From an uncultured Actinomycetes bacterium (GTDB lineage: Bacteria; Actinomycetota; UBA4738; HRBIN12): a stretch of DNA of 64,000 bases. The DNA is taken from contig CAYUSA010000009.1 in the NCBI GenBank assembly GCA_964447335.1, forward strand, positions 3,345 to 67,344, written 5' to 3'. This document shows positions 13,164 to 32,879 of this stretch, piece after piece. The stretch's first letter is position 1; each line of letters starts with the position of its first letter. A program made the position numbers and the translations under genes. The notes under the pieces are model-generated. The model ran no database searches. It saw only the letters and a program-made list of their open reading frames with translations, and was not told where the DNA came from.

Positions 13164-13165
13164 GG

Positions 13166-13444
13166 CTAGAGGCGCTCGGCGCGCTCGGCGAGGAGGGCCG
13201 CGCTCGTGCGGGTGGAGGGACGGCCCGGGGGGGGAAGAAGCTCCAAGAGGTCCTTCCGAGGTGAGGAGACCCGGCCTGCGGCCACCAGTCGAGCGAGCGG
13301 GCTCTCCGGCTCACCGAGGGGCGCGAGCACGGCCACCGGCCGCCCATGCTCGGTCACCTCGAGCCGTTCGCCCCGCTCCACGCGGCGGAGGTACTTGCTC
13401 AGGTTCTGCCGCAGCTCACGGACGCCGACCCGTCGCTCTTCCAT
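13166..13444 (-). CDS. Phd/YefM-family antitoxin
   Basis: MEERRVGVRELRQNLSKYLRRVERGERLEVTEHGRPVAVLAPL. The gene abuts the vapC start with a 2-bp gap. Confidence 0.75.
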   Translation of the reverse strand: MEERRVGVRELRQNLSKYLRRVERGERLEVTEHGRPVAVLAPLGEPESPLARLVAAGRVSSPRKDLLELLPPPGRPSTRTSAALLAERAERL

Positions 13445-13531
13445 GTAGCACAAGGTAGCACATCATGGTCCGGGATCGGAGCGAGCCTATACTCGCGATG
13501 TCTGAGCCCAGATGGGAGGGGAGGACCTGCG

Positions 13532-15138: not shown

Positions 15139-16226
15139 AACCCGATCACCTCCCGGCGCAGATTCTCCGCCTGCTCACGCCCGCGGCGCGGGTCGCGGCG
15201 CAGATCGGCGTAGAGACGGAAGCGATTGGCCAGCCACAGACCCTTCTTCTTCTCGCGGTAGACGAGCGGCGTGTCGTCCTTTGCCTGCAGGAACACGACG
15301 TTCTGGCCATCAATGACGGGATCTGCCCCTGCACCGTTGTGCAGCTCCTCAGGTGCCGCTGTCGCTGTCACCCACACGTCGACGATAGGAACCGCCGTGA
15401 TGAAGGGTGCGACCAGGCTTGCGGCCGCCGCTCCGGTGAGCGCGTACTCGATGCCGCTGCGTCCGAGGTTGGTGCCCACCGCCTTGATGAGCCGCTGTGG
15501 AGTCTGTGCGAGGAGGTAGGCCGGCGTCCGCGTCGCGCGCTCAACGTTCTCCTCGGCCCACAGGTCGAGCAGGGCGGTCGGGTCGGTGACTCGCCGCACA
15601 CGCTTGGGACCGGTGCCCTGTGCCGCGACGATCCCTTCTGTCTCCAGGCGAGCGAGAACGCGGTGTGTCAGGGCGCCCGACACCTGCCCCTCTTGGGCGA
15701 GGTCCTTGACCTGCCATGCGCGGTCGGGGTGGAGCAAGAGTGCCTGAGCGACGACTCCGGCCTTGCCCTTCAGGCGTGTCGGCGGGGTGTCTCCGGCCCT
15801 CTGCTCCGGCCGTCGGTGGCCTTCCAGATGGAAGAGAAGGCCGGGCAGCTCGATATGGGCGTTCCCGAGACCATCGATGACGGCGATACCGTGCTCCTCC
15901 AGGATCTTCCGAGCTTCCGCGGTGGTCTGGCCTGCGATGAGCAGAACGGGCACATCCGGCCGTTCGTGGGCGTAGTGCACGAGCTGCCAGGCCGTGGCCG
16001 GGTTGGCGCGCCGTTTGAAGTCGACGGCGACCGGGACACGGTTGCCGGCGAAACGAAGGATGGTGTCGACCGCGCGATCCGCACCGCCAGGCTTGGCCAT
16101 CACGGCCAGGCCGGGGATCCCCCGTAGGATGCGGAGAGCCGCGGCCTCGAACGGGCCCTCCAGATTCACAAGTGCATGCTTATTCACAACGTCTATGAAT
16201 ATAGCCGATTCTGTGAAACGTGTCAT
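15135..16226 (-). CDS. COG5340/AbiEi-like winged-HTH regulator (Rv2827c-like architecture): N-domain, wHTH, C-domain
   Basis: The central wHTH reads AWQVKDLAQEGQVSGALTHRVLARLETEGIV. It is a paralogue of the 39448..40485 gene. The true start may instead be GTG at 16187, since a -35/-10 promoter appears to lie in the ORF's first 40 bp (see findings). Confidence 0.6.
   Translation of the reverse strand: MTRFTESAIFIDVVNKHALVNLEGPFEAAALRILRGIPGLAVMAKPGGADRAVDTILRFAGNRVPVAVDFKRRANPATAWQLVHYAHERPDVPVLLIAGQTTAEARKILEEHGIAVIDGLGNAHIELPGLLFHLEGHRRPEQRAGDTPPTRLKGKAGVVAQALLLHPDRAWQVKDLAQEGQVSGALTHRVLARLETEGIVAAQGTGPKRVRRVTDPTALLDLWAEENVERATRTPAYLLAQTPQRLIKAVGTNLGRSGIEYALTGAAAASLVAPFITAVPIVDVWVTATAAPEELHNGAGADPVIDGQNVVFLQAKDDTPLVYREKKKGLWLANRFRLYADLRRDPRRGREQAENLRREVIGF
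16183..16226 (-). promoter_or_regulatory. Putative autoregulated promoter: ATGACA-N17-TATATT with a TTCACA...TGTGAA inverted repeat
   Basis: Read on the minus strand this is ATGACA cgtttcacagaatcggc TATATT catagacgtt GTG. It has the same architecture as the promoters at 40486-40521 and 21415-21450. Confidence 0.35.
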
Positions 16227-17286: not shown

Positions 17287-17542
17287 GCGTGTCGCTCTGA
17301 GTTGCGGCGGCCACAACTGCCGCGAGGGTGCCGACGTCGGCGCGACAGAGGATCACGCCGCCGAGACCTCCTCCTCACCCGGCGAGTAGCGTGCCCCCTG
17401 CGCGACCAGGCTGCACGCGGGGAAGCCGCCCGCCGGCTTCAGGAAGGTCCGAGGGTCAGGCGTCCCACCTGCGAAGATGAGGAGCTTCGCCGGACACGAC
17501 ATCATTGCCTCGAGGGGTCGGAGCGGGAGGAGTCCACCGGCG

Positions 17543-18499
17543 ATGGGTGAACGAACGGCGGTCGTCGCGATCGGCGGCAACTCGCTGATCAAGGACACGA
17601 TGCACCAGACGGTGCGCGATCAGTACATCGCGGCCGGCGAGACGTGCGTCCATATCGCCGGGATGATCCGCGACGGCTGGAACGTGGTGATCACGCACGG
17701 CAACGGTCCGCAGGTCGGGTTCATCCTGCGCCGGTCCGAGCTCGCCGCCCACGAGCTGCACGAGGTCCCGCTCGACGTGTGCGGGGCCGACACGCAGGGT
17801 GCGATCGGCTACGCGCTCCAGCAGAACCTCTACAACGACTTCGCCCGGCTCGGTATGGACAGGCGCGTCGTGACCGTCATCACGCAGACCGAGGTGGCGG
17901 CGGACGACCCGGCCTTCGACGACCCGACGAAGCCCATCGGCTCGTACATGGACGCCGAGCAGGCCGCCCGCCGCCGGGAGGAGGACGGCTGGAGCGTGGT
18001 CGAGGACGCCGGCCGCGGATGGCGCCGCGTCGTGGCGTCGCCGGCGCCGAAGCGGATCGTCGAGGAGGGCGTGATCCGGGACCTGCTGAACGACGGGGTC
18101 GTCGTCATCGCGGTCGGCGGCGGCGGGATCCCCGTGGTCGCGGACGCGAACGGGGACCTGCGCGGCGTCCCCGCGGTCATCGACAAGGACCGCGCGTCCT
18201 CGCTCCTCGCGTCCTCGCTCGGAGCGGAGCTCTTCGTGATCAGCACGTCGATCGAGAAGGTCGCGCTCCGGTTCGGCACGCCGGAGCAGCAGTGGGTCGA
18301 TCACCTCACACCGGAGGAGGCCCGGCGGTACCTGGCCGAGGGCACGCACTTCGCCAAGGGCAGCATGGCCCCGAAGATCGAGGCGGCGGTCGCGTTCGTG
18401 GAGGCAACCGGCGGCACGGCCGTGATCACAAATCCCGAGAGCGTCGCCCGCGCGCTGGCGGGCGAGACGGGCACGCGGATCGGTTCGGCGGGAGGATGA
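17543..18499 (+). CDS. arcC: Carbamate kinase
   Basis: MGERTAVVAIGGNSL...VITHGNGPQVG...AVIDKDRASSLLA...GSMAPKIEAAVAF is a carbamate-kinase / amino-acid-kinase fold signature. Confidence 0.85.
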   Translation: MGERTAVVAIGGNSLIKDTMHQTVRDQYIAAGETCVHIAGMIRDGWNVVITHGNGPQVGFILRRSELAAHELHEVPLDVCGADTQGAIGYALQQNLYNDFARLGMDRRVVTVITQTEVAADDPAFDDPTKPIGSYMDAEQAARRREEDGWSVVEDAGRGWRRVVASPAPKRIVEEGVIRDLLNDGVVVIAVGGGGIPVVADANGDLRGVPAVIDKDRASSLLASSLGAELFVISTSIEKVALRFGTPEQQWVDHLTPEEARRYLAEGTHFAKGSMAPKIEAAVAFVEATGGTAVITNPESVARALAGETGTRIGSAGG

Positions 18500-18519
18500 G
18501 CGGGTACTCGATGGTACGG

Positions 18520-18796
18520 ATGACGACACGCGCCGAGAAGCACGCGAGACCCTCACGCTGGACGGACGGGAGGTCTCGGCCGAGGTTCGCCCGGGCATGA
18601 GCCTGCTCAAGCTCCTGCGGGAGGAGCTCGGCGTGACCTCGGCGAAGGACGTGTGCGCGCCCGAGGGCTCGTGCGGCGCGTGCGCCGTGCTGATCGACGG
18701 CAAGGCCGTGTGGTCTCCTGCGCCCAGAAGGCCGAGCGCGCCGCGGCAGTACAGCCGCAGGCGCCGGTGCCTGTGCTGATCCAGCGCGAGGTTACA
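18520..18796 (+). pseudogene. Decayed remnant of a [2Fe-2S] small subunit (CoxS/XdhC-like) of a molybdopterin dehydrogenase
   Basis: ...TLTLDGREVSAEVRPGMSLLKLLREELGVTSAKDVCAPEGSCGACAVLIDGKAV matches the CoxS N-terminal ferredoxin domain. It is split over three frames: MTTRAEKH in one, the core in a second, and VSCAQKAERAA in a third, and it is truncated at ~18796. Confidence 0.4.
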
Positions 18797-18999
18797 CCCG
18801 GCCCTCGCGCCTGTGAATCCAGCTGACGCGCGGTCCGCACAACCGTGTGTCGTTCCGGTACCACGGGCTCGCCGACCGGCGATCGACCAGGGCCACCTGG
18901 GCGGTGGGCGGGCTGCTCGACGACGCGAGAGCGGCATTGCGATCGTCCCCAGCCGCGGCACGATCGACGCCTCTTCTTGCCCTTCAATACAATCGCGAC

Positions 19000-21360
19000 A
19001 TGGCGAACCTCGGTCCTCTGGAGGCTTCTACCTGTAAGGACTACGTCGTCCCACTGCTCAAGGCGGCAGGCTGGTCGGATGAGCAGATCGTCGAGCAGTT
19101 CCCCGTGACCGACGGCCGGATTATCCCCGGAGTGAAGGGGCACCGCAGAGAGAAGCCGCTACGCGCCGACTATCTCTTGGAGTATCGGCCGGGCCTTGCG
19201 GTCGCGGTCGTCGAAGCCAAGCGCGAGTACAAGCTTCCGACGGACGGCCTGCAGCAGGGAAAGCGCTACGCGCAGATGCTCGATCTGCCGCTCGCCTACT
19301 CGACGAACGGCAAGGGCATCGTCGAACACGACTTCGACACAGGTGCGGAAACGAACCCTGCCAAGTTCCCGACCCCACAAGAAGCCTGGGACAGATATCG
19401 CTCTTACCAGGGGATCACTCCAGCGGCTGAGGAGATCCTCACGCTGCCGTTCAACCGCGATCTTCGGCGTCCGGACGGTGCCGTCAAGGAGCCCCGCTAC
19501 TACCAGCGGGTCGCGATCGACCGTGTCCACGCATCGGTGGTGGCCGGGAACAAGCGCGCCTTGCTCACCATGGCGACCGGCACCGGCAAGACCTTCGTTG
19601 CCATGCAGATCGTATGGAAGCTTTGGCGACATGCCTGGCCCGAAGGCCGCAAGCCGCGCGTCCTCTATCTCGCGGACCGGAACATCCTCGTGGACCAACC
19701 GATCCAGCGTGAATTCCTGCCCGTCTTCGGCAACGCGATCTGGAAGATCAAGGGCGCGGCCAAGACGAGCCGCGAGATCTACTTCGCCCTGTATCAGTCG
19801 CTCGCGGATTCCGGCGACAGTCTCGGGATCTTCCGCGACTATCCGGCGGACTACTTCGATCTCGTCGTCGTCGATGAGTGTCACCGCGGCAGCGCCAAGG
19901 ACGACTCGAGCTGGCGGGCGATCCTGGATCACTTCGCTCCGGCCACGCAGCTGGGTCTCACAGCCACGCCCAAACGCGACGACAACGTCGATACGTACGC
20001 CTACTTCGGCGACCCGCTCTACACCTACTCACTTGCGCAGGGGATCGAAGACGGCTTCCTCGCTCCCTACCGGGTCCGGCGTGTCGTCCTTAGCGCGGAT
20101 GCGTACGGATGGAGTCCTGATGAAGGGCAGCTCGACCTCTTCGGCAAGGAGATCCCTGCCGGCCTCTACGAAACGCGAGACTTCGAACGCGTCGTGTCCC
20201 TGCTAACCCGCACTCAGGCGGCGGCGCATCACCTCACCGAGTACATGAAGCGAACCGACCGGATGGCGAAGACCGTTGTGTTCTGCGTCGATCAGGAACA
20301 CGCGGACCAGATGCGAGCGGCGCTTCACAAGGAGAATGAGGATCTTGCAAGGCAGCACCCGAACTACGTTGCCCGCATCGTCTCCGACGAAGGCGATGTC
20401 GGCGATGAGCTCCTCGGGTATTTCGCAGATCCGGAATCCGAAGAGCCGGTCATCGTCACGACGTCGCGTTTGCTCTCCACCGGTGTGGACATGCCCGCCG
20501 TCAAGAACATCGTGCTGTTCAAGCCGATCGGCTCGATCGTCGACTTCAAGCAGATCATCGGCCGCGGGACGCGCATCTACGAGGACGTCGACAAGCTCAG
20601 CTTCGAGATCATCGACTACTCGGGGGCAACGCGGCTGTTCGAAGACCCGGAGTTCGACGGTCCTGCCGAGCGCGTCGCGACCGAAGAGATCGATGAGAAC
20701 GGCGACGTTCAGGTAGAGCTGGTTGTAGCCGAACCCGAGCAGCCGTTCGGGGAACCCGGCGAACTGGATGAAGAAGAGGTCGCAGAAGAGGCCCGCGAGA
20801 AGCTCTACGTTGGCGACGCGCCCGTATACCTCGTGGCCGAGGGATACCGGATCCTCGACCCCGCCACCGGCAAGCTGAAGCTCGTCGAGTACGCCGACTA
20901 CGTGAAGGACCAAGTACGGATCCTGTTCGAGGGTCATGCCGAACTTCTGGGACGCTGGCGAACGCACGAGGGACGGGAAGAGATCAAGGAGCTGCTGGCC
21001 GAGCGAGGAGTGTTCCTTCAAGAGGTGGCGGAGCAATCGCACCTGGAGGAGCTCGACCCGCTCGATGTTCTTGCCCATCTGGCCTGGAACAGCCCGGCCG
21101 CGAGCCGGCGGGACCGCGCCCGCAGGGTGCGAAATGCGAACTTCCTCGAAACCTTCCAGCCCCAGGCTCGAGAAGTGCTGGAGCTGCTGCTTGAGAAGTA
21201 CGCGGAGTTCGGTGTCTCGCAGCTCGATGACCTGGAGGTCCTGATGGTCCCGCCGCTGAACGAGCTCGGAACCCCCGTTGAGATCGCCGCCCGGTTCGGC
21301 GGTCCGGCCAAGCTTCAGGAAGCCGTTGACCGCATGGAGCAGCTCCTCTACGCTGCGTGA
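19000..21360 (+). CDS. hsdR: Type I restriction enzyme R subunit
   Basis: PD-(D/E)xK nuclease motif (LRADYLLEYRPGLAVAVVEAKREYK), DEAD-box helicase motifs (TMATGTGKT, DECHR, LTATP) and a C-terminal HsdR domain. I used the internal start MANLG; a TACAAT -10 lies 6 nt upstream. Confidence 0.85.
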   Translation: MANLGPLEASTCKDYVVPLLKAAGWSDEQIVEQFPVTDGRIIPGVKGHRREKPLRADYLLEYRPGLAVAVVEAKREYKLPTDGLQQGKRYAQMLDLPLAYSTNGKGIVEHDFDTGAETNPAKFPTPQEAWDRYRSYQGITPAAEEILTLPFNRDLRRPDGAVKEPRYYQRVAIDRVHASVVAGNKRALLTMATGTGKTFVAMQIVWKLWRHAWPEGRKPRVLYLADRNILVDQPIQREFLPVFGNAIWKIKGAAKTSREIYFALYQSLADSGDSLGIFRDYPADYFDLVVVDECHRGSAKDDSSWRAILDHFAPATQLGLTATPKRDDNVDTYAYFGDPLYTYSLAQGIEDGFLAPYRVRRVVLSADAYGWSPDEGQLDLFGKEIPAGLYETRDFERVVSLLTRTQAAAHHLTEYMKRTDRMAKTVVFCVDQEHADQMRAALHKENEDLARQHPNYVARIVSDEGDVGDELLGYFADPESEEPVIVTTSRLLSTGVDMPAVKNIVLFKPIGSIVDFKQIIGRGTRIYEDVDKLSFEIIDYSGATRLFEDPEFDGPAERVATEEIDENGDVQVELVVAEPEQPFGEPGELDEEEVAEEAREKLYVGDAPVYLVAEGYRILDPATGKLKLVEYADYVKDQVRILFEGHAELLGRWRTHEGREEIKELLAERGVFLQEVAEQSHLEELDPLDVLAHLAWNSPAASRRDRARRVRNANFLETFQPQAREVLELLLEKYAEFGVSQLDDLEVLMVPPLNELGTPVEIAARFGGPAKLQEAVDRMEQLLYAA

Positions 21361-21382
21361 TATGCCTCAGGAGTGCACGAAC

Positions 21383-21450
21383 CTATATCGAATCTATAGT
21401 TCTGCGTAGCCACCTTGTCAGAGAACTAAAGATTCCGTATAGTTACACGC
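21383..21450 (+). promoter_or_regulatory. abiEi promoter/operator: CTATA-N7-TATAG palindrome, then TTGTCA-N17-TATAGT, then a leaderless ATG 7 nt downstream
   Basis: The 90-bp spacer between hsdR and abiEi is AT-rich (~45% GC versus ~70% background). -35 at 21415-21420, -10 at 21438-21443, ATG at 21451. Confidence 0.45.
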
Positions 21451-22050
21451 ATGGCGAACGTACAGGACAGGCGCGAGCTTCGCCGCAAGCTGTTCCAGAT
21501 CGCTGGATATCAGTCCGGTCTCTTCACGGCTGCCCAGGCACGGGACGCCGGCTACTCCTACGCGGCTCAGAAGTACCACGTCGACCACGGGAACTGGGTC
21601 CGGATCGACAGGGGGATCTTCCGCCTGCCCGAGTGGCCGCCCGAGCGGCACGAGGATCTCATCCGATGGGTGCTCTGGAGCGGCGGCAAAGGGGTCATCT
21701 CCCACGACACCGCGCTTTCGGTGTACGACCTCGGCGACGTCGATCCGGTCCGTACGCATCTCACGGTGCCCAAGGGGTTCCGCAAGTCAGCCCCCGGGGT
21801 GGCACTTCACCGCGCAACCCTGCCGAGCGAAGACGTTCAGGGCTTCGAGGGGGTTTCCATCACGACCCCGACGCGCAGCGTCCTCGACGTCGCGGCGGGC
21901 AACCTGGATGCGGACCAACTCGCCTCGGCGGTCGGCGATGCCATCGGGGCAGGGCTGGCGACGAAGAGAGAGCTCCTCCGACGGGCGGATTCCTTCGGCG
22001 CGCACGCGGCACTCCGCATCGAACGCTCACTCATGGACGCTGCTGCGTAG
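21451..22050 (+). CDS. abiEi: AbiEi antitoxin / transcriptional regulator (type IV TA / abortive infection)
   Basis: LFQIAGYQSGLFTAAQARDAGYSYAAQKYHVDHGNWVRIDRGIFRLPEWPP...LIRWVLWSGGKGVISHDTALSVYDL is the AbiEi_4 N-domain with the conserved C-domain. Confidence 0.8.
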   Translation: MANVQDRRELRRKLFQIAGYQSGLFTAAQARDAGYSYAAQKYHVDHGNWVRIDRGIFRLPEWPPERHEDLIRWVLWSGGKGVISHDTALSVYDLGDVDPVRTHLTVPKGFRKSAPGVALHRATLPSEDVQGFEGVSITTPTRSVLDVAAGNLDADQLASAVGDAIGAGLATKRELLRRADSFGAHAALRIERSLMDAAA

Positions 22051-22913
22051 TGGATCGCTACAAGACGCCCGCCGCCTTCCGCGCGGCTCTGGAGGACCGC
22101 CTGAAACAGCGCGCTCCGGACCAGTCCGCACTCGACCGATCCCGCAGGCAAGTCGTGTTCGACCGCATGCTTGCACGCCTGGAACGGGAGACGCCCGGCC
22201 AGTGGGTGGTCAAAGGGGGAACGGCTTTGGAGATCCGTCTGCCGGGCCGGGCGCGCCGCACCAAGGATCTTGACATGGCGACACGTCAAGACACGACGGA
22301 TGGGCTCGAGCTCCGGGGCGACCTCGTTCGGGCACTTGACCCCGACCCCTTCGAGGACTGGTTCGAGTTCAGGGTCGCCGATCCGCAGCAACTGGCCGAC
22401 GACGAGGCCGGTCGCCCCGGTTGGCGGTTCCCCGTGGAGTCGCGCCTAGCGGGTAGGACCTTTGCCAAGGTGAAGATGGACGTCGTTGCACGCATGGACG
22501 AGATCTCGGCAACCGAGAGGGTCACACTACCGGGGCTGTTGGACTTCGCCGGCCTCCCCCCGGTGGAAGTCGAGATCGTTGACAAGAAGCAGCACTTCGC
22601 CGAGAAGCTTCACGCGTACTCGAAGGACTATGGCGATCGCCCGAATACCCGCGTCCGTGACATCGTCGACATGGTGCTGCTGATCGAGGACGGCTTGCAG
22701 CCCGACGCCGATCTGTACGTCGCGGTCGACCATGTGTTCGCCGTGAGGGATACGCATCAGATCCCCGTTGATCTCCCGGACCCGCCACTGGTATGGGAGG
22801 AGCGCTACGAGGAACTCGCACAGGATCTCGATATCAGCCCGAAGACGCTTGATGTGGCCGTTCCGACGGTTCGGAGCTTCTGGGCGGCTGCGGTCGTAGC
22901 AGCGAAGGAGTAG
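22050..22913 (+). CDS. abiEii: AbiEii nucleotidyltransferase toxin (DUF1814)
   Basis: ...QWVVKGGTALEIRLPGRARRTKDLDMAT... is the NTase motif. The GTG start overlaps the abiEi stop (TAGTG). Confidence 0.8.
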   Translation: MDRYKTPAAFRAALEDRLKQRAPDQSALDRSRRQVVFDRMLARLERETPGQWVVKGGTALEIRLPGRARRTKDLDMATRQDTTDGLELRGDLVRALDPDPFEDWFEFRVADPQQLADDEAGRPGWRFPVESRLAGRTFAKVKMDVVARMDEISATERVTLPGLLDFAGLPPVEVEIVDKKQHFAEKLHAYSKDYGDRPNTRVRDIVDMVLLIEDGLQPDADLYVAVDHVFAVRDTHQIPVDLPDPPLVWEERYEELAQDLDISPKTLDVAVPTVRSFWAAAVVAAKE

Positions 22914-22916
22914 ACG

Positions 22917-24410
22917 ATGGCGAAGAAGAAGCAACCAGAGAAGCCGACGACACCGCAGGCGCGACTGGCGTCGGCGATCAAGCGCGCTCGCGACATCATG
23001 CGCAAGGACGCCGGTCTGAACGGGGACACCGACCGCATCCCGCAGCTCGCCTGGCTGCTCTTCCTGAAGGCCTTCGACGCGCAAGAGGCCCAGCGCGAGG
23101 TCACCGACCGCTCGTTCCGGCCTGCCATCGAGGCTCCCTTCCGTTGGCGCGACTGGGCGGCCAACGAGATCGAGGGCCGCACCGGCGAGGCGCTGCTCAC
23201 GTTTGTGAACGGCGAGCTGCTGCCGTACCTGCGAGGACTGACCGGCACCGAAGAGCGCGATCCGCGCGACGTCCTGGCCGCCGTCTTCAAAGAGACCTAC
23301 AACCGGATGCTCTCCGGCTACCTGCTGCGCGATGCCATCGATTGCGTGAACGAGGTCCACTTCGAGTCCTCTGACGACATCCACACGATGGCGTTCCTCT
23401 ACGAGACCATGCTGCGCGAGATGCGGGACGCCGCCGGCGACTCCGGCGAGTTCTACACCCCCAGGCCGGTCATCCGCTTCATCGTCCGGCAGGTCGATCC
23501 GAAGCTCGGCGAGATCATCCTCGACCCCGCTTGCGGGACCGGAGGCTTCCTCGTGGAATCGCTCGAGCACCTGCGACCGAAGGCCAAGAGCGTGGAGCAA
23601 TGGCAGGGGCTGCAGGACGACCTGCGTGGGATCGAGAAGAAGCCGCTGCCCTACCTGCTCGGCATGATGAACCTGCTCCTGCACGAGGTCGAGCAGCCCG
23701 CGATCGTCCGCGACAACGCCCTCGCACACCCGGTCACCGAGATCCGGGAAGCGAGCCGCGTGAACGTCGTCGTCACCAACCCGCCGTTCGGCGGTGAGGA
23801 GGAGAAGAGCATCCAGGCCAACTTCCCGGCCGGAACGCGGGCTGCGGAGACGGCGCTGCTCTTCCTGCAACTCGTCGAGCGCTCCCTTAAGTCCTCCGGC
23901 CGGTGCGGCATGGTCGTGCCCAACGGGCTCCTATTCGGCGACGGAGTCGCCGCGCGCATCAAGGAGCGGCTGATGAAGGAGTGCAACCTCCACACGATCG
24001 TCCGCTTGCCTGAGGGTGTCTTTGCCCCATACACGGACATCGCTTCGAATCTGCTCTTTTTCGAGAAGACCGGGCGCACCAAGGAAGTCTGGTTCTACGA
24101 GATCTTCCCGCCCGAGGGTAAGAAGAAGTACTCGAAGACCCGCCCGATGCCGTTCGAAGCTTTCGCCGAGTGCCAGGCATGGTGGGGTGGAGCAGCTCGA
24201 TCCGGACGAGCGGAGACTAGTCACGCGTGGCGGGTCCCTATCGCCGACCTTGAAGCTAGCGGTTACAACCTCGACCTCAAGAACCCGGATTCGTCCCTTG
24301 ACCTTTCGCACAAACCACCCGGAGAACTCCTCGCTGATCTCACCGAACTGGAACACGAGATCCAAGACCTTCTTACGCAACTCTCCTCTGCGATTCGGGG
24401 GGCAGAATGA
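22917..24410 (+). CDS. hsdM: Type I RM N6-adenine DNA methyltransferase subunit
   Basis: HsdM_N domain (...IPQLAWLLFLKAFD...), SAM motif LDPACGTGGFLV and NPPF catalytic motif (VVVTNPPFGG). An AAGGAG RBS lies upstream. Confidence 0.9.
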   Translation: MAKKKQPEKPTTPQARLASAIKRARDIMRKDAGLNGDTDRIPQLAWLLFLKAFDAQEAQREVTDRSFRPAIEAPFRWRDWAANEIEGRTGEALLTFVNGELLPYLRGLTGTEERDPRDVLAAVFKETYNRMLSGYLLRDAIDCVNEVHFESSDDIHTMAFLYETMLREMRDAAGDSGEFYTPRPVIRFIVRQVDPKLGEIILDPACGTGGFLVESLEHLRPKAKSVEQWQGLQDDLRGIEKKPLPYLLGMMNLLLHEVEQPAIVRDNALAHPVTEIREASRVNVVVTNPPFGGEEEKSIQANFPAGTRAAETALLFLQLVERSLKSSGRCGMVVPNGLLFGDGVAARIKERLMKECNLHTIVRLPEGVFAPYTDIASNLLFFEKTGRTKEVWFYEIFPPEGKKKYSKTRPMPFEAFAECQAWWGGAARSGRAETSHAWRVPIADLEASGYNLDLKNPDSSLDLSHKPPGELLADLTELEHEIQDLLTQLSSAIRGAE

Positions 24411-25609
24411 CTGTCAACGCCGTCTCGGTCGGAGAAGTTGCCACCCTTCACCGGCGGTGGATCAACCCGGATCCTATGACTGAATACATTCAGATTGGCG
24501 TCCGAGGCTTCGGCAGGGGCATCTTCCACTATCCACCGACGCTGGGGATGAACCTGGGACGACTTCGCTTCGCGACGGTCGAGCCGGGCGACCTAGTAGT
24601 GAGCAACATCAAGGCGTGGGAAGGTGCCATAGCTATGGCTGGCGACGGGGACGCGAACTGTATCGCATCCAACCGCTTCCTCACCTATCGAGTTTCAGAC
24701 GAGCGCGCGGACGCTCGTTATCTCCGGTACTTCTTCCTGAGCGAAGCTGGCCTCCGCCTCATTGGAAGGGCTTCACCGGGTTCCGCAGATAGAAATCGCA
24801 CCCTCGCAATCGATCGCTTTGAAGCGCTTGAGGTCCCGCTCGGACCGATTGACGAACAGCGCCGCATCGCCACCCTGCTTGACTCCATCCATTCGCGGAC
24901 TTCCACCGCGGACGCATTCGCAGTGAAGGCCGCCGTTGCCGCCGAGGCTCTGAAATGGGCCGTCACAAGGGATACGTTCGCCGACGTCGATACGAGTCTG
25001 AGCGAAGCCGTAGACATCAACCCGGAGTCGGTGAATCCGGAGAGAGACCTCGACGGGTCGATGTTCACCTACATCGACATCGGGTCGGTAGCCAATGGCA
25101 CGGGCGCGATTGCGACCCCGAAGGTCCTTCCGGTTGCCGAGGCTCCCTCCCGGGCGCGCAAGCGCGTGAGGACGGGTGACGTTCTGGTCGCGACCGTCCG
25201 CCCTAATCTCAAGGGAGTGGCGCTCGTATCGCAGGCACTCGATGGTGCTATCTGTTCGACGGGGTTCGCGGTCCTTAGGCCGAACTCTCGGCTGTCTCCC
25301 GAGTACCTGCTCCTTCAATGCCTGTCAGATGCCGTGACGGAACAGCTTGTCGAAGCCACCCGAGGTGGTCACTATCCTGCGGTCCCGGATAGGAAGCTTC
25401 GAGACGTGAAGATCGCGGTGCCGCCGGCGGACGAGCAGGTTGCCGTTGTTCAACGTCTGGGAGTGCTTCTTCATGAAGTCGGCGAACTCAAGCGGCGAAT
25501 CGGGGAGAGGAACGACCTTCTGCAAGCGCTCCCAAAGTCCATGCTTAACGAGTGCTTCAAAGGCGGAGCCTCCAAGGGACCCGCCGGCGAAGGAAGACCC
25601 CCCCGATGA
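24407..25609 (+). CDS. hsdS: Type I RM specificity subunit with two target-recognition domains
   Basis: Two TRDs separated by the conserved central and terminal coiled-coil repeats (LGPIDEQRRIATLLDSI... / ...VPPADEQVAVVQRLGVLLHEV). The start overlaps the hsdM stop (ATGA). The local GC is lower (~58%). Confidence 0.85.
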   Translation: MTVNAVSVGEVATLHRRWINPDPMTEYIQIGVRGFGRGIFHYPPTLGMNLGRLRFATVEPGDLVVSNIKAWEGAIAMAGDGDANCIASNRFLTYRVSDERADARYLRYFFLSEAGLRLIGRASPGSADRNRTLAIDRFEALEVPLGPIDEQRRIATLLDSIHSRTSTADAFAVKAAVAAEALKWAVTRDTFADVDTSLSEAVDINPESVNPERDLDGSMFTYIDIGSVANGTGAIATPKVLPVAEAPSRARKRVRTGDVLVATVRPNLKGVALVSQALDGAICSTGFAVLRPNSRLSPEYLLLQCLSDAVTEQLVEATRGGHYPAVPDRKLRDVKIAVPPADEQVAVVQRLGVLLHEVGELKRRIGERNDLLQALPKSMLNECFKGGASKGPAGEGRPPR

Positions 25610-26436
25610 TGGAACTGCGGGATGGATTGGGCGCGAGTGATGCCGAGAAGGCCATCCGCGATGTGATCGTTTGGTTCGAGAACCTGTCCGGAGGAGGTAG
25701 GGACGCCCTTGCGCTTCGCGACAGGTATCTGACTGAGGTCGAGCGTGCCGAGTCACAGCTGAGCAACCTGTATCCGGGGCTTGAGTGGATGGGCAGGCTC
25801 TACAGCGAGCGCTACTGGCGCATCCGCGAACTACACGCCGGCAGCCCGCGTCCCTTTCCGCTGATCCAGGACGAAGCTCGCGCGGTGGTCGGCTGGCTCA
25901 ACGACATGAAGCGTTGGCTGGAGGAACTCGCAGCCGAAGAGGCGCTGGTAGATCCGAAGGTTCCTCGCGTCGTGCTGGACACGAACGCCATCATGCACGC
26001 CAAGCCGCTCAGGGACAGCGACTGGCCCGGGGAACTGGGTCGGTCGTCCGTCCGGCTGATCCTGCCGTTGATCGTCATCACCGAACTCGACAACCTCAGG
26101 AACAGCGGGAACGACAAGAAAAGGGCGCGAGCCGCAACACGGCTATCAGAGATGCGTCGTCTGCTAGATGGGAAAGGGCGCGGACCCACGGACGTTCGGA
26201 CCAGAGTAACGCTCGAGGTTCTCGTCACACCCAGAGGGCACCTGCGCCACCAGAACAACGACGAGGAGATACTCGCGAACGTCGAGTCGCTCTCTCGGCG
26301 CCCCGGCGGCGCTCTTGTGCTCGCCACCGACGATTTCTCGATGCAGTTGAGGGCGGAGTCCCGAGGGATGGACGTAGTCGCGATCCCTGAGAATCTGGAG
26401 ATGCCTTTGCAGCCGCCACTCCCCGACGAGAGTTAG
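25606..26436 (+). CDS. Two-domain protein: an all-alpha N-terminal domain (~125 aa, with an Rx4H motif RIRELH) fused to a C-terminal PIN nuclease domain; translationally coupled to hsdS
   Basis: The PIN region reads PRVVLDTNAIMHAKPL...LILPLIVITELDNL...LVLATDDFSMQL...MDVVAIP, carrying the four conserved PIN acidic residues. The ATG at 25606 overlaps the hsdS TGA (ATGATGG). Confidence 0.65.
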   Translation: MMELRDGLGASDAEKAIRDVIVWFENLSGGGRDALALRDRYLTEVERAESQLSNLYPGLEWMGRLYSERYWRIRELHAGSPRPFPLIQDEARAVVGWLNDMKRWLEELAAEEALVDPKVPRVVLDTNAIMHAKPLRDSDWPGELGRSSVRLILPLIVITELDNLRNSGNDKKRARAATRLSEMRRLLDGKGRGPTDVRTRVTLEVLVTPRGHLRHQNNDEEILANVESLSRRPGGALVLATDDFSMQLRAESRGMDVVAIPENLEMPLQPPLPDES

Positions 26437-27137
26437 CGAACCTCGATCGATTCCCAGCTGGCTTCACCCACCACGACGTGTGAGAGAAAGCGCGTGCAGA
26501 CTGCTCGCGACGCTTCAAGCATATGTCGAGTCGCGTCCAAGTCGATATCGCTTGGCTTCGTATCGCCGGAGGGATGGTTGTGGGCGACAGCGAACGCACG
26601 CCCGTCATTGACCAGTACGGCGTTGAGGATCTCGCGCACCGGCACCATCGCCCGGTCGATCGACCCCTCGCTGACGCGCACGACCTTCTTCAGGCGGTTG
26701 GCGCCGTCGCAAACGAGCACGACGACGCGCTCGCGGCGCAGCCCTCTAAGCTCCTGACCAGCGATCCGGGCGACGTCCTCGGGCCCCCGCAGCTGCTCTC
26801 CTACTCCGCCGACGTGTTCGGAGCGCCGACCGAGCGTGAAAGCCGCGATGAGCCCTGCCGCCTTCGCTTCGCCGACACCCGGCCAGCGAGTCAGCTCCTC
26901 CAGCCTGGCCGACGCGATCGCCCGCAGCGAGCCGAACTCGGCAAGCAGCTCGCTTGCCAGATCCAGCGAGCTGACGCCCGGACGTCCGTTCCGGATAACC
27001 AGGGCCAACAGTTCCCGGTCGCTCAACGCCGCCGCGCCGACAGAGACAAGGCGCTCCCTCGGACGTTCCCCGCTGGGGATGCGTGCGATCGTCGTCGGTC
27101 CTGTCATAGGGCGAAGGGTAGTGTTTGGCTCTGACAT
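26433..27137 (-). CDS. RadC-like JAB/MPN-domain protein (UPF0758)
   Basis: ERPRERLVSVGAAALSDRELLALVIRNGRPGVSSLDLASELLAEFGSLRAI...WPGVGEAKAAGLIAAF is the HhH region. FAVAHNHPSGDTKPSDID is the JAMM H-x-H-x(n)-S-x2-D metalloprotease motif. An alternative start is at 27107. Confidence 0.75.
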   Translation of the reverse strand: MSEPNTTLRPMTGPTTIARIPSGERPRERLVSVGAAALSDRELLALVIRNGRPGVSSLDLASELLAEFGSLRAIASARLEELTRWPGVGEAKAAGLIAAFTLGRRSEHVGGVGEQLRGPEDVARIAGQELRGLRRERVVVLVCDGANRLKKVVRVSEGSIDRAMVPVREILNAVLVNDGRAFAVAHNHPSGDTKPSDIDLDATRHMLEASRAVCTRFLSHVVVGEASWESIEVR

Positions 27138-27178
27138 CCGAGTTCGGACCCGAGGAGACGGAGACCATCGGCGACAAC

Positions 27179-28192
27179 ATGAACGGACTGAGTTGGGAGG
27201 AGCTCGACACGGTCTACCTCCCGGAGAGAGACCGGTCATTCACCGAGGACCGCTGCTTCCTGTGCGGGACGCCGCTCACCAAGAAGAACCGCGCCGACGA
27301 GCATGTCTTCCCGAAATGGCTTCAGCATCGGTTCGACCTCTGGAACCAACGGATGGTTCTCCTCAATCGCACGGACATCCCATATCGGAGTGTCAAGATT
27401 CCGTGCTGCTCAGCCTGCAACCACGGACCCTTGGCGGAACTCGAAGCCCGGGTGGCGGAAGCCCATGCGGACGGTTTTGAAGGTTTCGCCCAGCTGGACA
27501 GGCGTGACCTCTTCCTGTGGCTGGCGAAGATCTATTACGGCCTGATGTTCCGAGAGGTGCTGCTCCCGGCCGACAGAACCGATCCAGACTCAGAGCCGAT
27601 CCTCCCCCCGGATATCTTCGAGGAGCTGAGGATGCACCATTTGCTCTTGCAAGCGATCCGCGGCGCCGTGCGGTGGCGCGGGTTCCCTGCCAGCATCTTC
27701 CTGTTCCGATGCCAGGTGCACCCCGATCCGCGATTCGGCTTTGACTATCGTGATTCGTTCTTGGATCCTTTTCTCGCCCTTCGCCTCGGTCAAGTCGCAG
27801 TACTCGCGAATCTTCAGGACTGGGGAGCGATGGAGGACCAAGCGATTGCGGACTTCGAGACGGCGAAGACTCTCGAGCTTCACCCTGTCCAGTTCATCCA
27901 GCTCGCCGCGCAGGCGACGTACATCAGCACATTGTTCAACCGAACGCCAAAACACGTGGTCGTCCTGGACCGGGATGTCCTCGACGTCATCACGCTTCCC
28001 CTTGCAGGCTTCAGTGGCAAGCCCTTGTTCGATTCCTTCGACCCCGCCGAATACGCGGAGTTCTTGGCGGCAGCAATGTTCGTGGGGGTCGACGAGGTGA
28101 TGGGCGGCGACGGAATCAGGACTTACCTTCAGGACGAGCGACGCGCCCCTTTGTTCATCCCATGGGATCCGCAGGGGAACGTCACGCCATGA
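27179..28192 (+). CDS. HNH-endonuclease-domain protein with a ~230-aa C-terminal extension of unknown function
   Basis: CFLCGTPLTKKNRADEHVFPKWLQHRF...IPCCSACNHG is an HNH (McrA-like) C-x2-C...H...N...C-x2-C-N-H signature. GC is noticeably lower (~58-60%). It is transcribed divergently from the RadC-like gene. Confidence 0.6.
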   Translation: MNGLSWEELDTVYLPERDRSFTEDRCFLCGTPLTKKNRADEHVFPKWLQHRFDLWNQRMVLLNRTDIPYRSVKIPCCSACNHGPLAELEARVAEAHADGFEGFAQLDRRDLFLWLAKIYYGLMFREVLLPADRTDPDSEPILPPDIFEELRMHHLLLQAIRGAVRWRGFPASIFLFRCQVHPDPRFGFDYRDSFLDPFLALRLGQVAVLANLQDWGAMEDQAIADFETAKTLELHPVQFIQLAAQATYISTLFNRTPKHVVVLDRDVLDVITLPLAGFSGKPLFDSFDPAEYAEFLAAAMFVGVDEVMGGDGIRTYLQDERRAPLFIPWDPQGNVTP

Positions 28193-28404
28193 CAGTCCCT
28201 GAGACTGCGGGAATACCGGTGGCCATGCCGGTACTCGAGCGTCCGGTTTGCACTGGTGTCCAACCATCGGGGTAGAGTCCGTCAAGTCCGCTCGCTGAAG
28301 CGGACCCCGCTCGGGCACCACGATCCGGATTGCAGGCTTGTAGGAATCAGGCGCTAGGGTCGCCAGATGCCGCCCCCGCGCCGAGATGGTGGCGGGACTA
28401 CTGC

Positions 28405-28587
28405 ATGCCCTCCGGTCACCGCCCCGTCGTCGAGTTCATCCGCACCTCCCTGATCCAACGCCGCGGCGGTCCTCAAACGCGGGCAGGTGCTCCTCGCACT
28501 CGAGGCGTTCGCGAAGAAGGGGCAGAAGACGCCACCCGCGACCATCGCGCTCGCCGAACGGCGCCTCCGAGACTGGCGCACCCGGGG
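28405..28587 (+). pseudogene. Remnant of a HigB/Gp49-family (RelE/ParE-superfamily) toxin, truncated and frameshifted
   Basis: The N-terminal piece MPSGHRPVVEFIRTSLIQRRGG is in one frame. The C-terminal piece VLKRGQVLLALEAFAKKGQKTPPATIALAERRLRDWRTRGRG* is in another; FxKKtqKTP...A..R is the Gp49/HigB C-terminal signature. The central ~45 aa are missing. Confidence 0.35.
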
Positions 28588-28649
28588 CAGAGGATAGCGA
28601 CAGCGATATCTCGGATCCGATATGGTCGGAAAGCGAAGGAGACCTCACC

Positions 28650-28961
28650 ATGGCGAAGGATCTGATCGACGAACTGACGGAGGAGCGGGCCAAGGGGAAC
28701 CCGGACTTCCCGGAGATGGTCGAGGCCGCCCTCAAAGCCCGCCGGCTGCTCCGGTCCCTCTCGGATCGCCGGCGCGAGCTCGGCCTCAGTTAGACCGCGG
28801 TCGCCGCGCGCATGGGGACATCGCAGTCCGCACTCGCCCGACTGGAGGGCGGGGACTCGGACCCGCGGATCTCGACCGTGGAGCGGTACGCGCTCGCGGT
28901 TGGCGAGGAGCTCGCGCACCGGCGGGTGGCCGCTGCGAGGTCTCGACGCCGCCGTACGTGA
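28650..28961 (+). pseudogene. XRE-family HTH antitoxin (HigA-like) interrupted by an in-frame TAG
   Basis: MAKDLIDELTEERAKGNPDFPEMVEAALKARRLLRSLSDRRRELGLS-TAG-TAVAARMGTSQSALARLEGGDSDPRISTVERYALAVGEEL. Across the stop at 28791-28793 the reading gives a complete HTH_XRE motif, and the stop falls exactly where a Gln codon (CAG) is expected. Confidence 0.45.
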
Positions 28962-29199: not shown

Positions 29200-29892
29200 G
29201 TGCCTGCAGTTTCCCAGCCTCGCTCCCCGCTCAGGCAGAGCGATACGGCCTACGAGCTGCTGAAACAGCTCATCGTCGAGTGCCAGGTCGCGCCCGGGGC
29301 CCTCGTCGACGAGCGGGACCTCATGGAGCGGCTCGAGGTCGGCCGCACCCCACTGCGGGAGGCGCTCCAGCGGCTCGAGCGCGACCACCTGATCCAGGCG
29401 GTCCCCAGACACGGGTACTTCGTCGCGCACGTCACGGTCGCCAACCTCGCGCACGCGTTCGAGCTCAGGCAGCCGGTCGAGGGGCTGGCGGCCCGGCTCG
29501 CGGCCGAGCGAGCGACCAAGCGGCATCTCGACGACCTGGTCGACTACCTGGCGGAGGTCGAGCGCGATTCGGGTCACACCACCGACCGGCGCTGGCACCT
29601 CTCGGTCGACAAGCGCTTCCACGACCTGGTGGCGGCCGCCTCGGGCAACCCGTACCTGCAGCACATGGTCGACGAGCTCTTCAACCTGACCGCCCGCCTC
29701 TTCTACATGTCCCAGGCGCCGATCACGCTGGTCCACGACGAGCTCCCCGCGTATCGCGCCGTCATCGGCGCGATACGGTCGGGCGACCCCGGCGAGGCCG
29801 AGCGCGCCATGCGAGTCCACGTCGAGCCGCTGCCGATGCAGCTCGTCTCGGGCGCCATCCCCAGAGTCCGCGATGGTGCTGCGCCGGGCTGA
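29200..29892 (+). CDS. GntR-family (FadR/FCD subfamily) transcriptional regulator
   Basis: AYELLKQLIVECQVAPGALVDERDLMERLEVGRTPLREALQRLERDHLI is a GntR wHTH, followed by a helical FCD domain. The ORF could extend to a GTG at 29140. I prefer the GTG at 29200 because an AT-rich GATATA-N7-TATATC operator-like palindrome sits at 29181-29199. Confidence 0.8.
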   Translation: MPAVSQPRSPLRQSDTAYELLKQLIVECQVAPGALVDERDLMERLEVGRTPLREALQRLERDHLIQAVPRHGYFVAHVTVANLAHAFELRQPVEGLAARLAAERATKRHLDDLVDYLAEVERDSGHTTDRRWHLSVDKRFHDLVAAASGNPYLQHMVDELFNLTARLFYMSQAPITLVHDELPAYRAVIGAIRSGDPGEAERAMRVHVEPLPMQLVSGAIPRVRDGAAPG

Positions 29893-30757
29893 GTCCCAGG
29901 GACGAGCCCGCACGGGCAGCGGCTGGACCACCCTCCTGTTGCTCTCGCCGTCGGTGCTCATGCTCGTCGCGTTCCTGCTCATCCCGCTGTTCATCGTCGT
30001 GAAGTACAGCTTCTCGGGGAGCGATCCCTACGGCGGCGTCACGTCGAACCTGACCCTGGAGAACTACCGGGCGCTGTTCCGCCCTCTGTACGTGCCGATC
30101 TTCCTGCGGAGCGTCGAGCTCGCCGCGGCGACAACCCTCGTGAGCCTGCTGGTCGGGTACCCGGTCGCCTACTTCCTGGCGTTCCGGGCCGGGCGGTTCG
30201 CGCCGCTGCTGCTGATGGCGATGATCGTCCCGTTCTGGACGAACTTCCTGGTCCGGATCTCGGCCTGGATGACCCTGCTGAACGACCAGGGCGTGATCAA
30301 CGCGACCCTGCAGGCGGTCGGGCTGACGGGCCGCCCGTTGCGCATGGTCCCCACGTCCGGGGCGGTCCTCGTCGGGCTCCTGTACGCGTTCCTGCCCTCG
30401 GCGGTGTTCCCGATCTACGCGAGCCTGCGCTCGGTGGAGCCGTCGCTGCTCGAGGCCGCGCAGGACCTGGGGTGCGGAGCGATCGCGACCCACCGCCGGA
30501 TCGTGCTGCCCGTCGCCCTGCCGGGGATCGTGGCCGCGGCGCTGCTCGTGTTCATCCCGGCGCTCGGCGTGTTCGTGATCCCGGTGCTGCTCGGCGGCGG
30601 CAAGCAGATCATGATCGGCAACCTCATCGTCACGCTCTACCTGGAGTTCCGGAACATCCCGTTCGGCGCCGCGATCTCGGTCGTGCTGCTGCTGATCGTG
30701 TCGATCGGGATCGCGGGTTTCCTGAAGCTCTCGGGCGCGGCGCGGAGGTTCGCGTGA
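29873..30757 (+). CDS. ABC transporter permease (PotB-like)
   Basis: Six TM segments with the EAA-like loop ...LEAAQDLGCGAIATHRRIVLPVALPGI.... The start overlaps the GntR gene end. Confidence 0.8.
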   Translation: MVLRRAESQGRARTGSGWTTLLLLSPSVLMLVAFLLIPLFIVVKYSFSGSDPYGGVTSNLTLENYRALFRPLYVPIFLRSVELAAATTLVSLLVGYPVAYFLAFRAGRFAPLLLMAMIVPFWTNFLVRISAWMTLLNDQGVINATLQAVGLTGRPLRMVPTSGAVLVGLLYAFLPSAVFPIYASLRSVEPSLLEAAQDLGCGAIATHRRIVLPVALPGIVAAALLVFIPALGVFVIPVLLGGGKQIMIGNLIVTLYLEFRNIPFGAAISVVLLLIVSIGIAGFLKLSGAARRFA

Positions 30758-30779
30758 TGGCCTCGGCACAGGGGTCCGC

Positions 30780-31685
30780 GTGATGGCCGCGACGACCGAG
30801 GGCCTCACTGCGTACCGCGTCGCCGGCTGGCGGACCTGGCTGAGCCGGATCGAGCAGCGCGCCGTCGACCTCGCGATCGGAGGGACGACGCTGCTCACGT
30901 ACGCGTTCCTGTACGCGCCGATCGTCATCCTCATCGTGTTCTCGTTCAACCGCGCCGAGCTCTCGTACTCGTGGCAGGGCGCGACGACCGAGTGGTACCG
31001 GGTCCTGCTGCACGACCGATACCTGTTCTCGGCGCTGCGGGTGAGCCTCGGCGTAGCGGCGAGCTCGGCCGTGATCGGGACGGCCGTCGGCGGGCTCACC
31101 GCCCTCACGATCGCCAGGAGAAGGTTCCGGGGCCGAGGCGCACTCACGATGGTCCTGTTCATGCCGCTCGTCCTGCCCGAGATCGTGGTCGCGGTCGCCT
31201 TCCTGTCGTTCGTGGTCGCGATGAAGGTGCACCTCGGCTACCTGACGCTGATCGCCGGCCACAGCCTGCTGGCGCTTCCGTTCGCGGCACTCATCCTGCT
31301 TGGCTCGGCGGCGGGGCTCGACGCCTCGCTGGAGGAGGCGGCCTCGGACCTCGGCTGCACGGCGTGGCAGGCGTTCCGGCGCGTGACGCTCCCGCTGCTG
31401 TTGCCCGGGATCCTCGCGAGCCTGCTGCTCACCTTCACGATGTCGCTCGACGACATCGTGATGTCGACGTTCGTCAGCGGGGTCGGCACCACGACGTTGC
31501 CGCTCCGCATCTACTCGATGCTCAAGACCGGCATCACGCCCGAGATCAACGCGCTCGGCACACTGCTCGTGGTGCTCAACCTCACGATCCTCGCCGCCGT
31601 GGGGGCGACGCAGCTGAAGCGCGTGCTCGGGATCGGAGCCACGGGGGGGAGGCGATCGATAGGGGCGCTTCCAGGACGACGGTGA
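30780..31685 (+). CDS. ABC transporter permease (PotC-like)
   Basis: TM protein with the EAA motif LEEAASDLGCTAWQAFRRVTLPLLLPGI. Confidence 0.8.
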   Translation: MMAATTEGLTAYRVAGWRTWLSRIEQRAVDLAIGGTTLLTYAFLYAPIVILIVFSFNRAELSYSWQGATTEWYRVLLHDRYLFSALRVSLGVAASSAVIGTAVGGLTALTIARRRFRGRGALTMVLFMPLVLPEIVVAVAFLSFVVAMKVHLGYLTLIAGHSLLALPFAALILLGSAAGLDASLEEAASDLGCTAWQAFRRVTLPLLLPGILASLLLTFTMSLDDIVMSTFVSGVGTTTLPLRIYSMLKTGITPEINALGTLLVVLNLTILAAVGATQLKRVLGIGATGGRRSIGALPGRR

Positions 31686-31718
31686 GACCCGGACCGACGG
31701 CCGAGATGGAGGTTCGAC

Positions 31719-32810: not shown

Positions 32811-32879
32811 GACGGGACCTTCGATGGTGGGAGGGTCCGCCTCCCACCATCGTGAGGTTGCCCGCTCCGTCTCAAGACC

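Follow-up and report, generated by a model that had tools for sequence, protein, structure and literature searches.

How does a compact block of defence genes come to lie just downstream of a carbamate kinase gene in an uncultured, high-GC actinobacterium? The question is raised by a stretch of 64,000 nucleotides (nt) from contig CAYUSA010000009.1 (assembly GCA_964447335.1), which is referred to here as the window. A first-pass annotation of this DNA had proposed that a low-GC defence island was inserted at 18.8-28.3 kb, between the carbamate kinase gene and an operon headed by a GntR regulator, disrupting a molybdopterin-dehydrogenase locus. Our analysis leads to a partly different answer. 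We propose that the segment at ~18.85-28.3 kb is most probably a horizontally acquired defence island occupying a strain-variable site downstream of a relic carbamate kinase gene, a site that originated by operon decay.

The composition of the segment sets it apart from its surroundings. GC content, measured in 500-bp windows, was 0.70-0.73 at 16.2-18.9 kb, 0.58-0.69 at 19.0-28.2 kb and 0.67-0.70 from 28.3 kb onwards; bases 19000-28192 have a GC of 0.632 versus 0.694 for the whole window. The fall from ~70% described earlier was recovered, but its depth (~58-62%) had been slightly overstated, the abiE segment reaching 0.67-0.69. At third codon positions, the GC content (GC3) of the eight island genes ranges from 0.68 to 0.84 (mean 0.78 +/- 0.04) and that of 20 genes outside 10.4-28.2 kb from 0.87 to 0.97 (mean 0.92 +/- 0.03), with zero overlap between the two sets (Mann-Whitney p = 6e-7). 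The tetranucleotide distance from the window profile, scanned over 8-40 kb with a robust 3-sigma threshold, gave outliers only in windows starting at 19.0-26.5 kb. Both sliding-window checks, which the first-pass annotation had suggested, thus found a non-uniform composition with the anomaly where it had been placed. The segment at 18.85-28.3 kb is compositionally foreign and is made of defence genes. The island measures 9.3 kb and holds eight genes, and every gene named earlier (hsdR, abiEi, abiEii, hsdM, hsdS, PIN, RadC/JAB and HNH-like) is present and full-length:

18964-18993, plus strand: promoter-like site TCGACG-18-TACAAT, a consensus match only, ending 6 nt before the hsdR ATG.
19000-21360, plus strand: hsdR, type IB (EcoAI/FtnUII family) restriction subunit, 786 amino acids (aa), matched in NF046051, PADLOC and Pfam.
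21374-21451, plus strand: hsdR-abiEi control region, with a promoter-like TTGTCA-17-TATAGT at 21415-21443 and an inverted repeat.
21451-22050, plus strand: abiEi, 199 aa, the antitoxin of a type IV toxin-antitoxin system and its transcriptional regulator (PADLOC AbiEi 1e-68; AbiEi_4, PF13338, 31.8 bits).
22050-22913, plus strand: abiEii, DUF1814 nucleotidyltransferase toxin, 287 aa (AbiEii, PF08843, 93.3 bits; PADLOC 7e-79).
22917-24410, plus strand: hsdM, N6-adenine methyltransferase subunit, 497 aa (N6_Mtase 211.7 bits; HsdM_N; PADLOC MTase_I 3e-198).
24407-25609, plus strand: hsdS, specificity subunit, 400 aa (PADLOC Specificity_I 4e-70, positions 1-385 of 392; Methylase_S 39.4 bits).
25606-26436, plus strand: two-domain PIN protein, an N-terminal helical region of ~120 aa without a family match followed by PIN_4 (55.1 bits versus a cutoff of 21.9).
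26433-27107, minus strand: RadC-like JAB/MPN protein, 224 aa (RadC, PF04002, 92.5 bits; UPF0758_N 84.9 bits).
27125-28192, plus strand: 355-aa protein with an HNH-like Cys4 N-terminal motif and a conserved C-terminal region of ~250 aa.

The left flank retains traces of an older arrangement, and four features precede the island there (relatives are given by our labels):

17474-17533, plus strand: OTCase deletion scar, the first ~58 nt (~19 codons, MRSFAGHDI...) of a ygeW-like gene, 80% to the OTCase start of L086-L091.
17543-18499, plus strand: carbamate kinase, intact, with a native GC3 of 0.94 (Pfam AA_kinase 73 bits; relatives at 84-97% identity).
18552 to ~18752, plus strand: truncated [2Fe-2S] pseudogene stub, residues ~3-69, with 67% identity (tblastn) to an 869-aa protein of L086.
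18784-18852, plus strand: 69-bp element shared at 84% with L084 (its 1482-1550), beginning with an 8-bp-stem hairpin, GCGCGAGG-11 nt-CCTCGCGC.

An intact operon adjoins the carbamate kinase gene in L085, in L086-L091 and in one JGI contig, in which carbamate kinase is 88-92% identical to that of the window. Its order is PALP-PALP-OTCase-carbamate kinase, then a dehydrogenase of ~870 aa (Fer2/Fer2_2/Ald_Xan_dh_C/MoCoBD), then amidohydrolase-luciferase-like-CoxM-CoxS-amidohydrolase, and it continues for at least 6 kb past the dehydrogenase. These relatives lack the island genes, and their intact operon is what the synteny check proposed earlier had anticipated. The same operon is present at 9010-17260 of L092 (ERZ25039603 contig_58283) as short split genes, with OTCase, dehydrogenase and CoxM each in two pieces; the splits are probably long-read frameshift errors rather than decay.

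In the window, DNA homology to L085/L086 spans 17538-18746, with its right end at 18741-18746. The OTCase scar abuts the carbamate kinase start almost directly and yields an in-frame open reading frame (ORF) from 17477 that extends the N-terminus by 22 codons. The dehydrogenase stub carries a frameshift near 18715 and, when its sequence is stitched, matches Pfam Fer2 at 29.6 bits. The frameshift and truncation of this stub had been recognized earlier, but its assignment to CoxS has to be corrected, as it represents the N-terminus of the ~870-aa fused dehydrogenase. None of the remaining operon genes, including the 3' part of the dehydrogenase, was found in the whole window, so what had been described as an insertion lacks two intact neighbours and is instead a replacement: more than 10 kb of the operon is missing downstream, as are the PALP and OTCase genes upstream, with the 58-nt OTCase remnant left behind. 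Carbamate kinase alone is left whole from the ancestral operon, and it serves as the conserved anchor beside which the site varies. Among species-representative genomes, the best match has 83% amino-acid identity, and carbamate kinase alone is conserved.

The closest relatives show how variable the site is. L084 and L107 have carbamate kinase genes with 96.7% and 96.5% nucleotide identity to that of the window, and both carry the OTCase scar and lack the dehydrogenase. In L084 the stub is absent; the 69 bp matching window positions 18784-18852 are followed by a low-GC (0.62-0.65) gene, whose product is a Schlafen AlbA_2/HATPase_c_4 protein. In L107, homology to the window ends at 18501, 2 nt past the carbamate kinase stop, and a signal-peptide protein follows, which is GH25 muramidase-like by eye only. 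On the upstream side, the two diverge from the window at 17448 (L084) and 17321 (L107). Three near-identical carbamate kinase anchors are therefore followed by three different neighbours, and the restriction-modification (R-M) island is absent from every relative found. L108 was left out of this comparison; it is an aberrant contig, more distant, in which carbamate kinase is internally duplicated.

These relatives make it doubtful that the island disrupted the dehydrogenase locus, as had been claimed, since they are already without the dehydrogenase and carry other cargo at the junction. In L084 the 69 bp found beyond the stub in the window lead into another cargo, which makes it probable that the truncation junction was in place before the R-M genes arrived. 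Alternatively, a family of elements may have the 69 bp as its conserved terminus; the sequence could be such an element end, a terminator or a relic. No further copies were found in the window or in viral contigs, and no Rfam family was detected in 17-30 kb. Separately, a 70-bp nucleotide match (84%) links the L084 Schlafen gene (1949-2018) to window positions 37943-38011, within an ORF of 225 aa; protein-level similarity between the two is absent.

To the right of the island lie two pseudogenes:

28393-28597, plus strand: HigB/Gp49-like toxin pseudogene, with an N-fragment at ~28393-28450 and a C-fragment at 28487-28597 (stitched, Gp49 25.8 bits versus a cutoff of 23.9).
28650-28961, plus strand: XRE/HigA-like antitoxin pseudogene, its helix-turn-helix interrupted in frame by a TAG at 28791-28793 (read through, HTH_3 40.5 bits).

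The toxin fragments lie in different frames and are separated by an internal deletion, so the degraded HigB/HigA pair reported earlier is indeed one, with its toxin split over frames and its antitoxin interrupted by a stop. These remnants have a native-like GC (0.693) and thus appear to be old residents. Beyond them, an operon of native composition extends over 29200-37791 (GntR(FCD)-ABC permeases-substrate-binding protein-RraA-creatininase-CN hydrolase-ABC ATPase). It has the look of a catabolic operon restricted to this lineage, with creatinine or a related compound as a possible substrate. The nearest non-self homologue of its GntR protein among 5.8 billion clusters is 60% identical, and no relative above 60% identity was found in JGI metagenome contigs or protein clusters; accordingly, the GntR operon, which had been taken to frame the island, is not demonstrable as the ancestral right flank. 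Between its creatininase and CN-hydrolase genes we observed an IS110-family transposase gene (DEDD_Tnp_IS110 + Transposase_20; 34527-35561, minus strand).

How, then, could the island have arrived? Two of the marks of a classical integrative island are present here, deviant composition and absence from relatives; integrase, transfer RNA (tRNA) or attachment (att) site, and repeats are not. No tRNA gene occurs in the 64-kb window, and the earlier statement that integrase and tRNA are lacking holds for 18.8-28.3 kb, the IS110 transposase lying elsewhere. Megablast of the island against plasmids gave no match and revealed no donor, and exact look-ups of window proteins returned the same strain only. 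Our model is that the site first held the catabolic operon PALP-PALP-OTCase-carbamate kinase-[Fer2-molybdopterin dehydrogenase]-amidohydrolase-..., and that deletions wore this operon down in an ancestor shared with the 96-97% relatives. From then on, one low-GC cargo would have replaced another here, recombination being the likeliest route, and the arrival of the present one would not have been that of a classical integrase/tRNA element. The cargo would comprise a type IB R-M system with an AbiE cassette in its hsdR-hsdM gap, a PIN_4 RNase-type protein, a RadC/JAB protein and a stand-alone HNH-like protein. Both the order of these events and the mechanism of exchange are what we infer from the comparison of strains.

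Several observations weigh against this model. Pfam detected no recombinase domain in the eight island genes. Searches for flanking direct or inverted repeats or a target duplication gave chance-level matches only, including the direct repeats at ~18.8 and ~28.3 kb for which a search had been recommended. No strain-level empty site joining carbamate kinase to the GntR operon was found. The right boundary at ~28.2-28.3 kb is set by composition alone because the GntR operon has no close relatives. At 2.7 kb for L084 and 1.7 kb for L107, the contigs of these two strains are short, and an R-M system could lie farther downstream in either. Finally, the promoter-like sites come from a scan with a sigma-70-type consensus, which may not be that of the host. 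The strongest competing idea, which we consider possible though clearly short of an even chance, is that a larger plastic region spans ~10.4-37.8 kb, with the island as just its most eye-catching portion and carbamate kinase as a relic within it. Such a region would take in four toxin-antitoxin pairs, a pair resembling a helix-turn-helix regulator and a nucleotidyltransferase, unknown genes, the R-M island, the HigBA remnants and the IS110-split GntR-ABC-creatininase operon. The four toxin-antitoxin pairs at 10.4-13.45 kb speak for it, as do the upstream divergence of L084 and L107, the distance of GntR from its nearest homologue and the IS110 element at 34.5 kb. Outside 19.0-28.3 kb, however, GC3 (0.80-0.97) and the tetranucleotide profile are near native, and those segments would therefore be old residents or derive from compositionally similar donors.

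A single integrative element that inserted into the dehydrogenase gene, truncated it and has since lost its integrase would account for a stub that stops no more than ~100 bp from where the low-GC DNA begins and for decayed toxin-antitoxin genes on the far side. We regard this as unlikely. Integrase, tRNA and direct repeats are all absent; more than 10 kb of the operon has been lost rather than displaced, the 3' part of the dehydrogenase being nowhere in the 64 kb; the upstream OTCase gene was deleted as well; and L084 has the 69 bp found beyond the stub, with another cargo, so that either the junction is older or an element end is shared. It is also very improbable that the low GC reflects functional or selective constraint on the defence genes of a vertically inherited locus. 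Defence genes are often AT-richer than their genomes, and no donor was identified; against this, it is the third codon positions, left free by protein function, that show the largest shift (0.78 versus 0.92), and the nearest relatives lack these genes at the site. Least credible of all is that the junctions are a chimera of metagenome assembly or binning, an idea to which the metagenomic origin of the contig and two Logan contigs that stop shortly past the left boundary, at 18956 and 19091, could be thought to point. The left junction is crossed by Logan assembly L082 (14147-23450) and the right one by L093 (19873-37287) and L094 (26259-37292), which come from separate runs and are 99.99-100% identical to the window.

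What does the island encode? Type I enzymes work in two forms: HsdM2S1, which methylates a bipartite target, and HsdR2M2S1, which translocates DNA that lacks this methylation and cuts it. By its sequence, the R-M system of the island is complete, with intact genes, and belongs to type IB (EcoAI family). On the NF046051 equivalog, whose cutoff is 550, HsdR reached 933.6 bits and aligned to positions 3-767 of the 768 in the profile; PADLOC REase_I (1e-201) and Pfam ResIII + EcoEI_R_C matched it as well. An 837-aa ORF starting at 18847 was discarded as an over-extended version of hsdR; the ATG at 19000 fits both the model and the public (Logan) gene call. The promoter-like site before this start would give a leaderless-type transcript. 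HsdM and HsdS are encoded separately, and of the two target-recognition domains of HsdS, Pfam Methylase_S picks up only the second. Family models from PADLOC, NCBIfam and Pfam together match all five R-M and AbiE proteins end to end, and it is from their sequences that we infer the activity of each island system.

The order of these genes is unusual in one respect: hsdR comes first, abiEi-abiEii stand between, and hsdM and hsdS follow, so that the contiguity of hsdR and hsdM is broken. Three EcoAI-family plasmid loci were sampled, and in all of them hsdR is followed at once by the methylase gene, two being plain hsdR-hsdM-hsdS and one having a fused methylase. A contiguous hsdR-hsdM-hsdS is typical of family IB, not defining. 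Since hsdR and the methylase gene adjoin in all of these loci, it is most simply assumed that the AbiE cassette and its control region entered the hsdR-hsdM gap together. The remaining junctions are tight: the hsdM ATG lies 3 nt past the abiEii stop, with a GGAG within the abiEii end, and ATGA overlaps join hsdM to hsdS and hsdS to the PIN gene.

AbiE is a characterised type IV toxin-antitoxin and abortive-infection system (Dy et al. 2014, PMC3985639). Here the abiEii start overlaps the abiEi stop by 1 nt, forming a bicistronic unit, and the AbiEii translation holds the nucleotidyltransferase motifs KGGTAL and KDLDM (motif definitions, GG... and DxD, partly from PMC3985639). The gap between hsdR and abiEi is AT-rich and 90 bp long, and an imperfect inverted repeat with 30-nt arms (21374-21403 / 21422-21451, 77% complementary) flanks the promoter-like site within it. 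Such a repeat is what autoregulation by AbiEi would require, and we consider it a putative, operator-like sequence. Only three promoter-like sites were found in 18.4-29.3 kb, before hsdR, abiEi and gntR, and the same scan gave no plus-strand terminator-like site. The genes from abiEi through PIN are packed by overlaps or 3-nt gaps. Since neither a terminator-like site nor a gap precedes hsdM, the abiEi promoter may also serve hsdM-hsdS-PIN, and the five genes abiEi-abiEii-hsdM-hsdS-PIN may be co-transcribed.

The PIN protein closing this array belongs to a common family of ~270-aa proteins with the same architecture (330 clusters at E <= 1e-10), which aligns over its full length. Residues D125, D162, D219 and D243 are invariant in 30 homologues, and the family profile matches the EST1A PIN structure at 3e-8; a single-sequence AlphaFold model was unusable, with a predicted local distance difference test score (pLDDT) of 38.8. 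The RadC gene is convergent with the PIN gene, with a 4-nt overlap. Its product scored 149.8 bits on TIGR00608 (cutoff 133.85) and 177.2 bits on NF000642, just below the cutoff of 180, and retains an intact HxHPxxxxxxSxxD metal motif, read as HNHPSGDTKPSDID, with HNHPSGD present.

The 355-aa protein had zero matches in Pfam, NCBIfam, PADLOC and PHROGs, and the PDB, searched by sequence and by fold, gave none either. Its AlphaFold2 model has a pLDDT of 90.4. We found 131 homologues, mostly from Actinobacteria, and none of the 131 has a Pfam domain. Over 55 homologues, C44, C47, E59, C95, C98 and N99 are invariant and H60 and N81 occur in at least 90%, giving the pattern CxxC..EH..N..CxxCN. Among HNH models, the best was PF14279 HNH_5, with 14.9 bits, below the cutoff of 27.5, over 21 of 56 profile positions. 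The motif therefore supports an HNH-nuclease-like working of the protein, not membership in an HNH family. The homologues' neighbours include a serine recombinase, an integrase with a Bub-type system, and a Streptomyces KAP-NTPase/AbiEi; no conserved RadC or R-M partner was seen in the neighbourhoods inspected. It is probably a stand-alone gene of mobile and defence regions that works as an HNH-type nuclease. An 'HNH endonuclease' encoded beside a Rhizobium EcoAI-type locus, considered as a relative, proved unrelated. Five island proteins were looked up among 15 billion proteins, and at 90% identity each forms a cluster of its own.

A bolder joint reading, which we hold only tentatively and think doubtful as a whole, is that the island is one integrated unit, in which the AbiEi promoter drives hsdM-hsdS-PIN and the PIN RNase is a third effector, that the 355-aa protein is an undescribed single-gene defence nuclease, and that the 3' end of carbamate kinase is a recombinase-free hotspot. 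If true, expression of the methylase and specificity subunits would be set by an abortive-infection antitoxin.

Further toxin-antitoxin-like genes lie upstream of carbamate kinase. Four tandem pairs occupy 10397-13453 on the minus strand (PemK/RHH, PIN/MazE-like, GNAT/TacA and PIN/Phd), with a near-native GC3 of 0.83-0.92. At 14275-16169, also on the minus strand, a protein of 344-376 aa with a weak MarR-type helix-turn-helix is encoded upstream of a weak NTP_transf_8 protein of 287 aa (E 0.004), a pair that resembles an AbiE-like regulator/nucleotidyltransferase pair. A distant paralogue of this helix-turn-helix protein is found at 39448-40602 on the minus strand (28% identity, E 5e-7), and the downstream partners of the two are mutually unrelated.

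The locus offers a well-bounded case of defence-cargo turnover in an uncultured high-GC actinobacterial lineage. Beside the sole survivor of an operon, strains only 3-4% apart carry differing low-GC genes, with no recombinase seen. Its value lies in this documented case, in an AbiE-hsd architecture to test and in a source of candidate genes.

Comparative-genomics work may already have met AbiE embedded in type I operons, but our literature search found no paper stating it. As possible precedents we inspected three plasmid-borne AbiE pairs, and all of them stand alone. The pair described here shares with the characterised AbiE (PMC3985639) the bicistronic, overlapping abiEi-abiEii, the COG5340-type antitoxin with its winged-helix N-terminal domain and the DUF1814 toxin with its motifs, and the inverted repeat at a promoter-like site would fit the autoregulation by AbiEi expected of such a pair. 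It differs from the three plasmid pairs in being embedded in an hsd operon. With EcoAI/FtnUII type IB R-M systems, the island shares the HsdR equivalog, full-length HsdM and HsdS, the order hsdR-hsdM-hsdS and the ATGA overlap, whereas here a two-gene AbiE parts hsdR from hsdM and the PIN gene overlaps the hsdS end. Second defence modules within type I R-M operons are known from PrrC in EcoprrI (PMC12707154) and from TgvAB in Vibrio VPI-2 (PMC11411939), and a systematic survey found embedded genes to be frequent in type I R-M systems, a principle termed 'guilt-by-embedding' (Payne et al., 10.1101/2024.01.29.577857). In common with these, our locus has a second, mechanistically different defence module between hsd genes; unlike PrrC and TgvAB, that module is AbiE rather than an ABC-ATPase anticodon nuclease or a GmrSD-like enzyme. 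PrrC senses inhibition of the R-M enzyme, and AbiE is likened to such a guardian here by its embedded position alone, the ABC-ATPase domain being absent (Pfam, PADLOC).

Recombinase-free defence hotspots flanked by conserved genes are known in E. coli. With hotspots of this kind (compare Hochhauser et al. 2023, PMC10121019), the present site shares a conserved anchor, differing low-GC cargos in 96-97% strains and the lack of integrase, tRNA and repeats. It differs in its one documented conserved flank, in its origin by operon decay and in its three alleles, two of which lie on short contigs. The island thus combines known kinds, namely a defence island, an embedded module and AbiE, and the current understanding of defence islands is unchanged. 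Its less common traits are how tightly AbiE is packed against hsdM-hsdS-PIN, a protein family as yet unnamed that bears the HNH-like motif, and a site born of operon decay.

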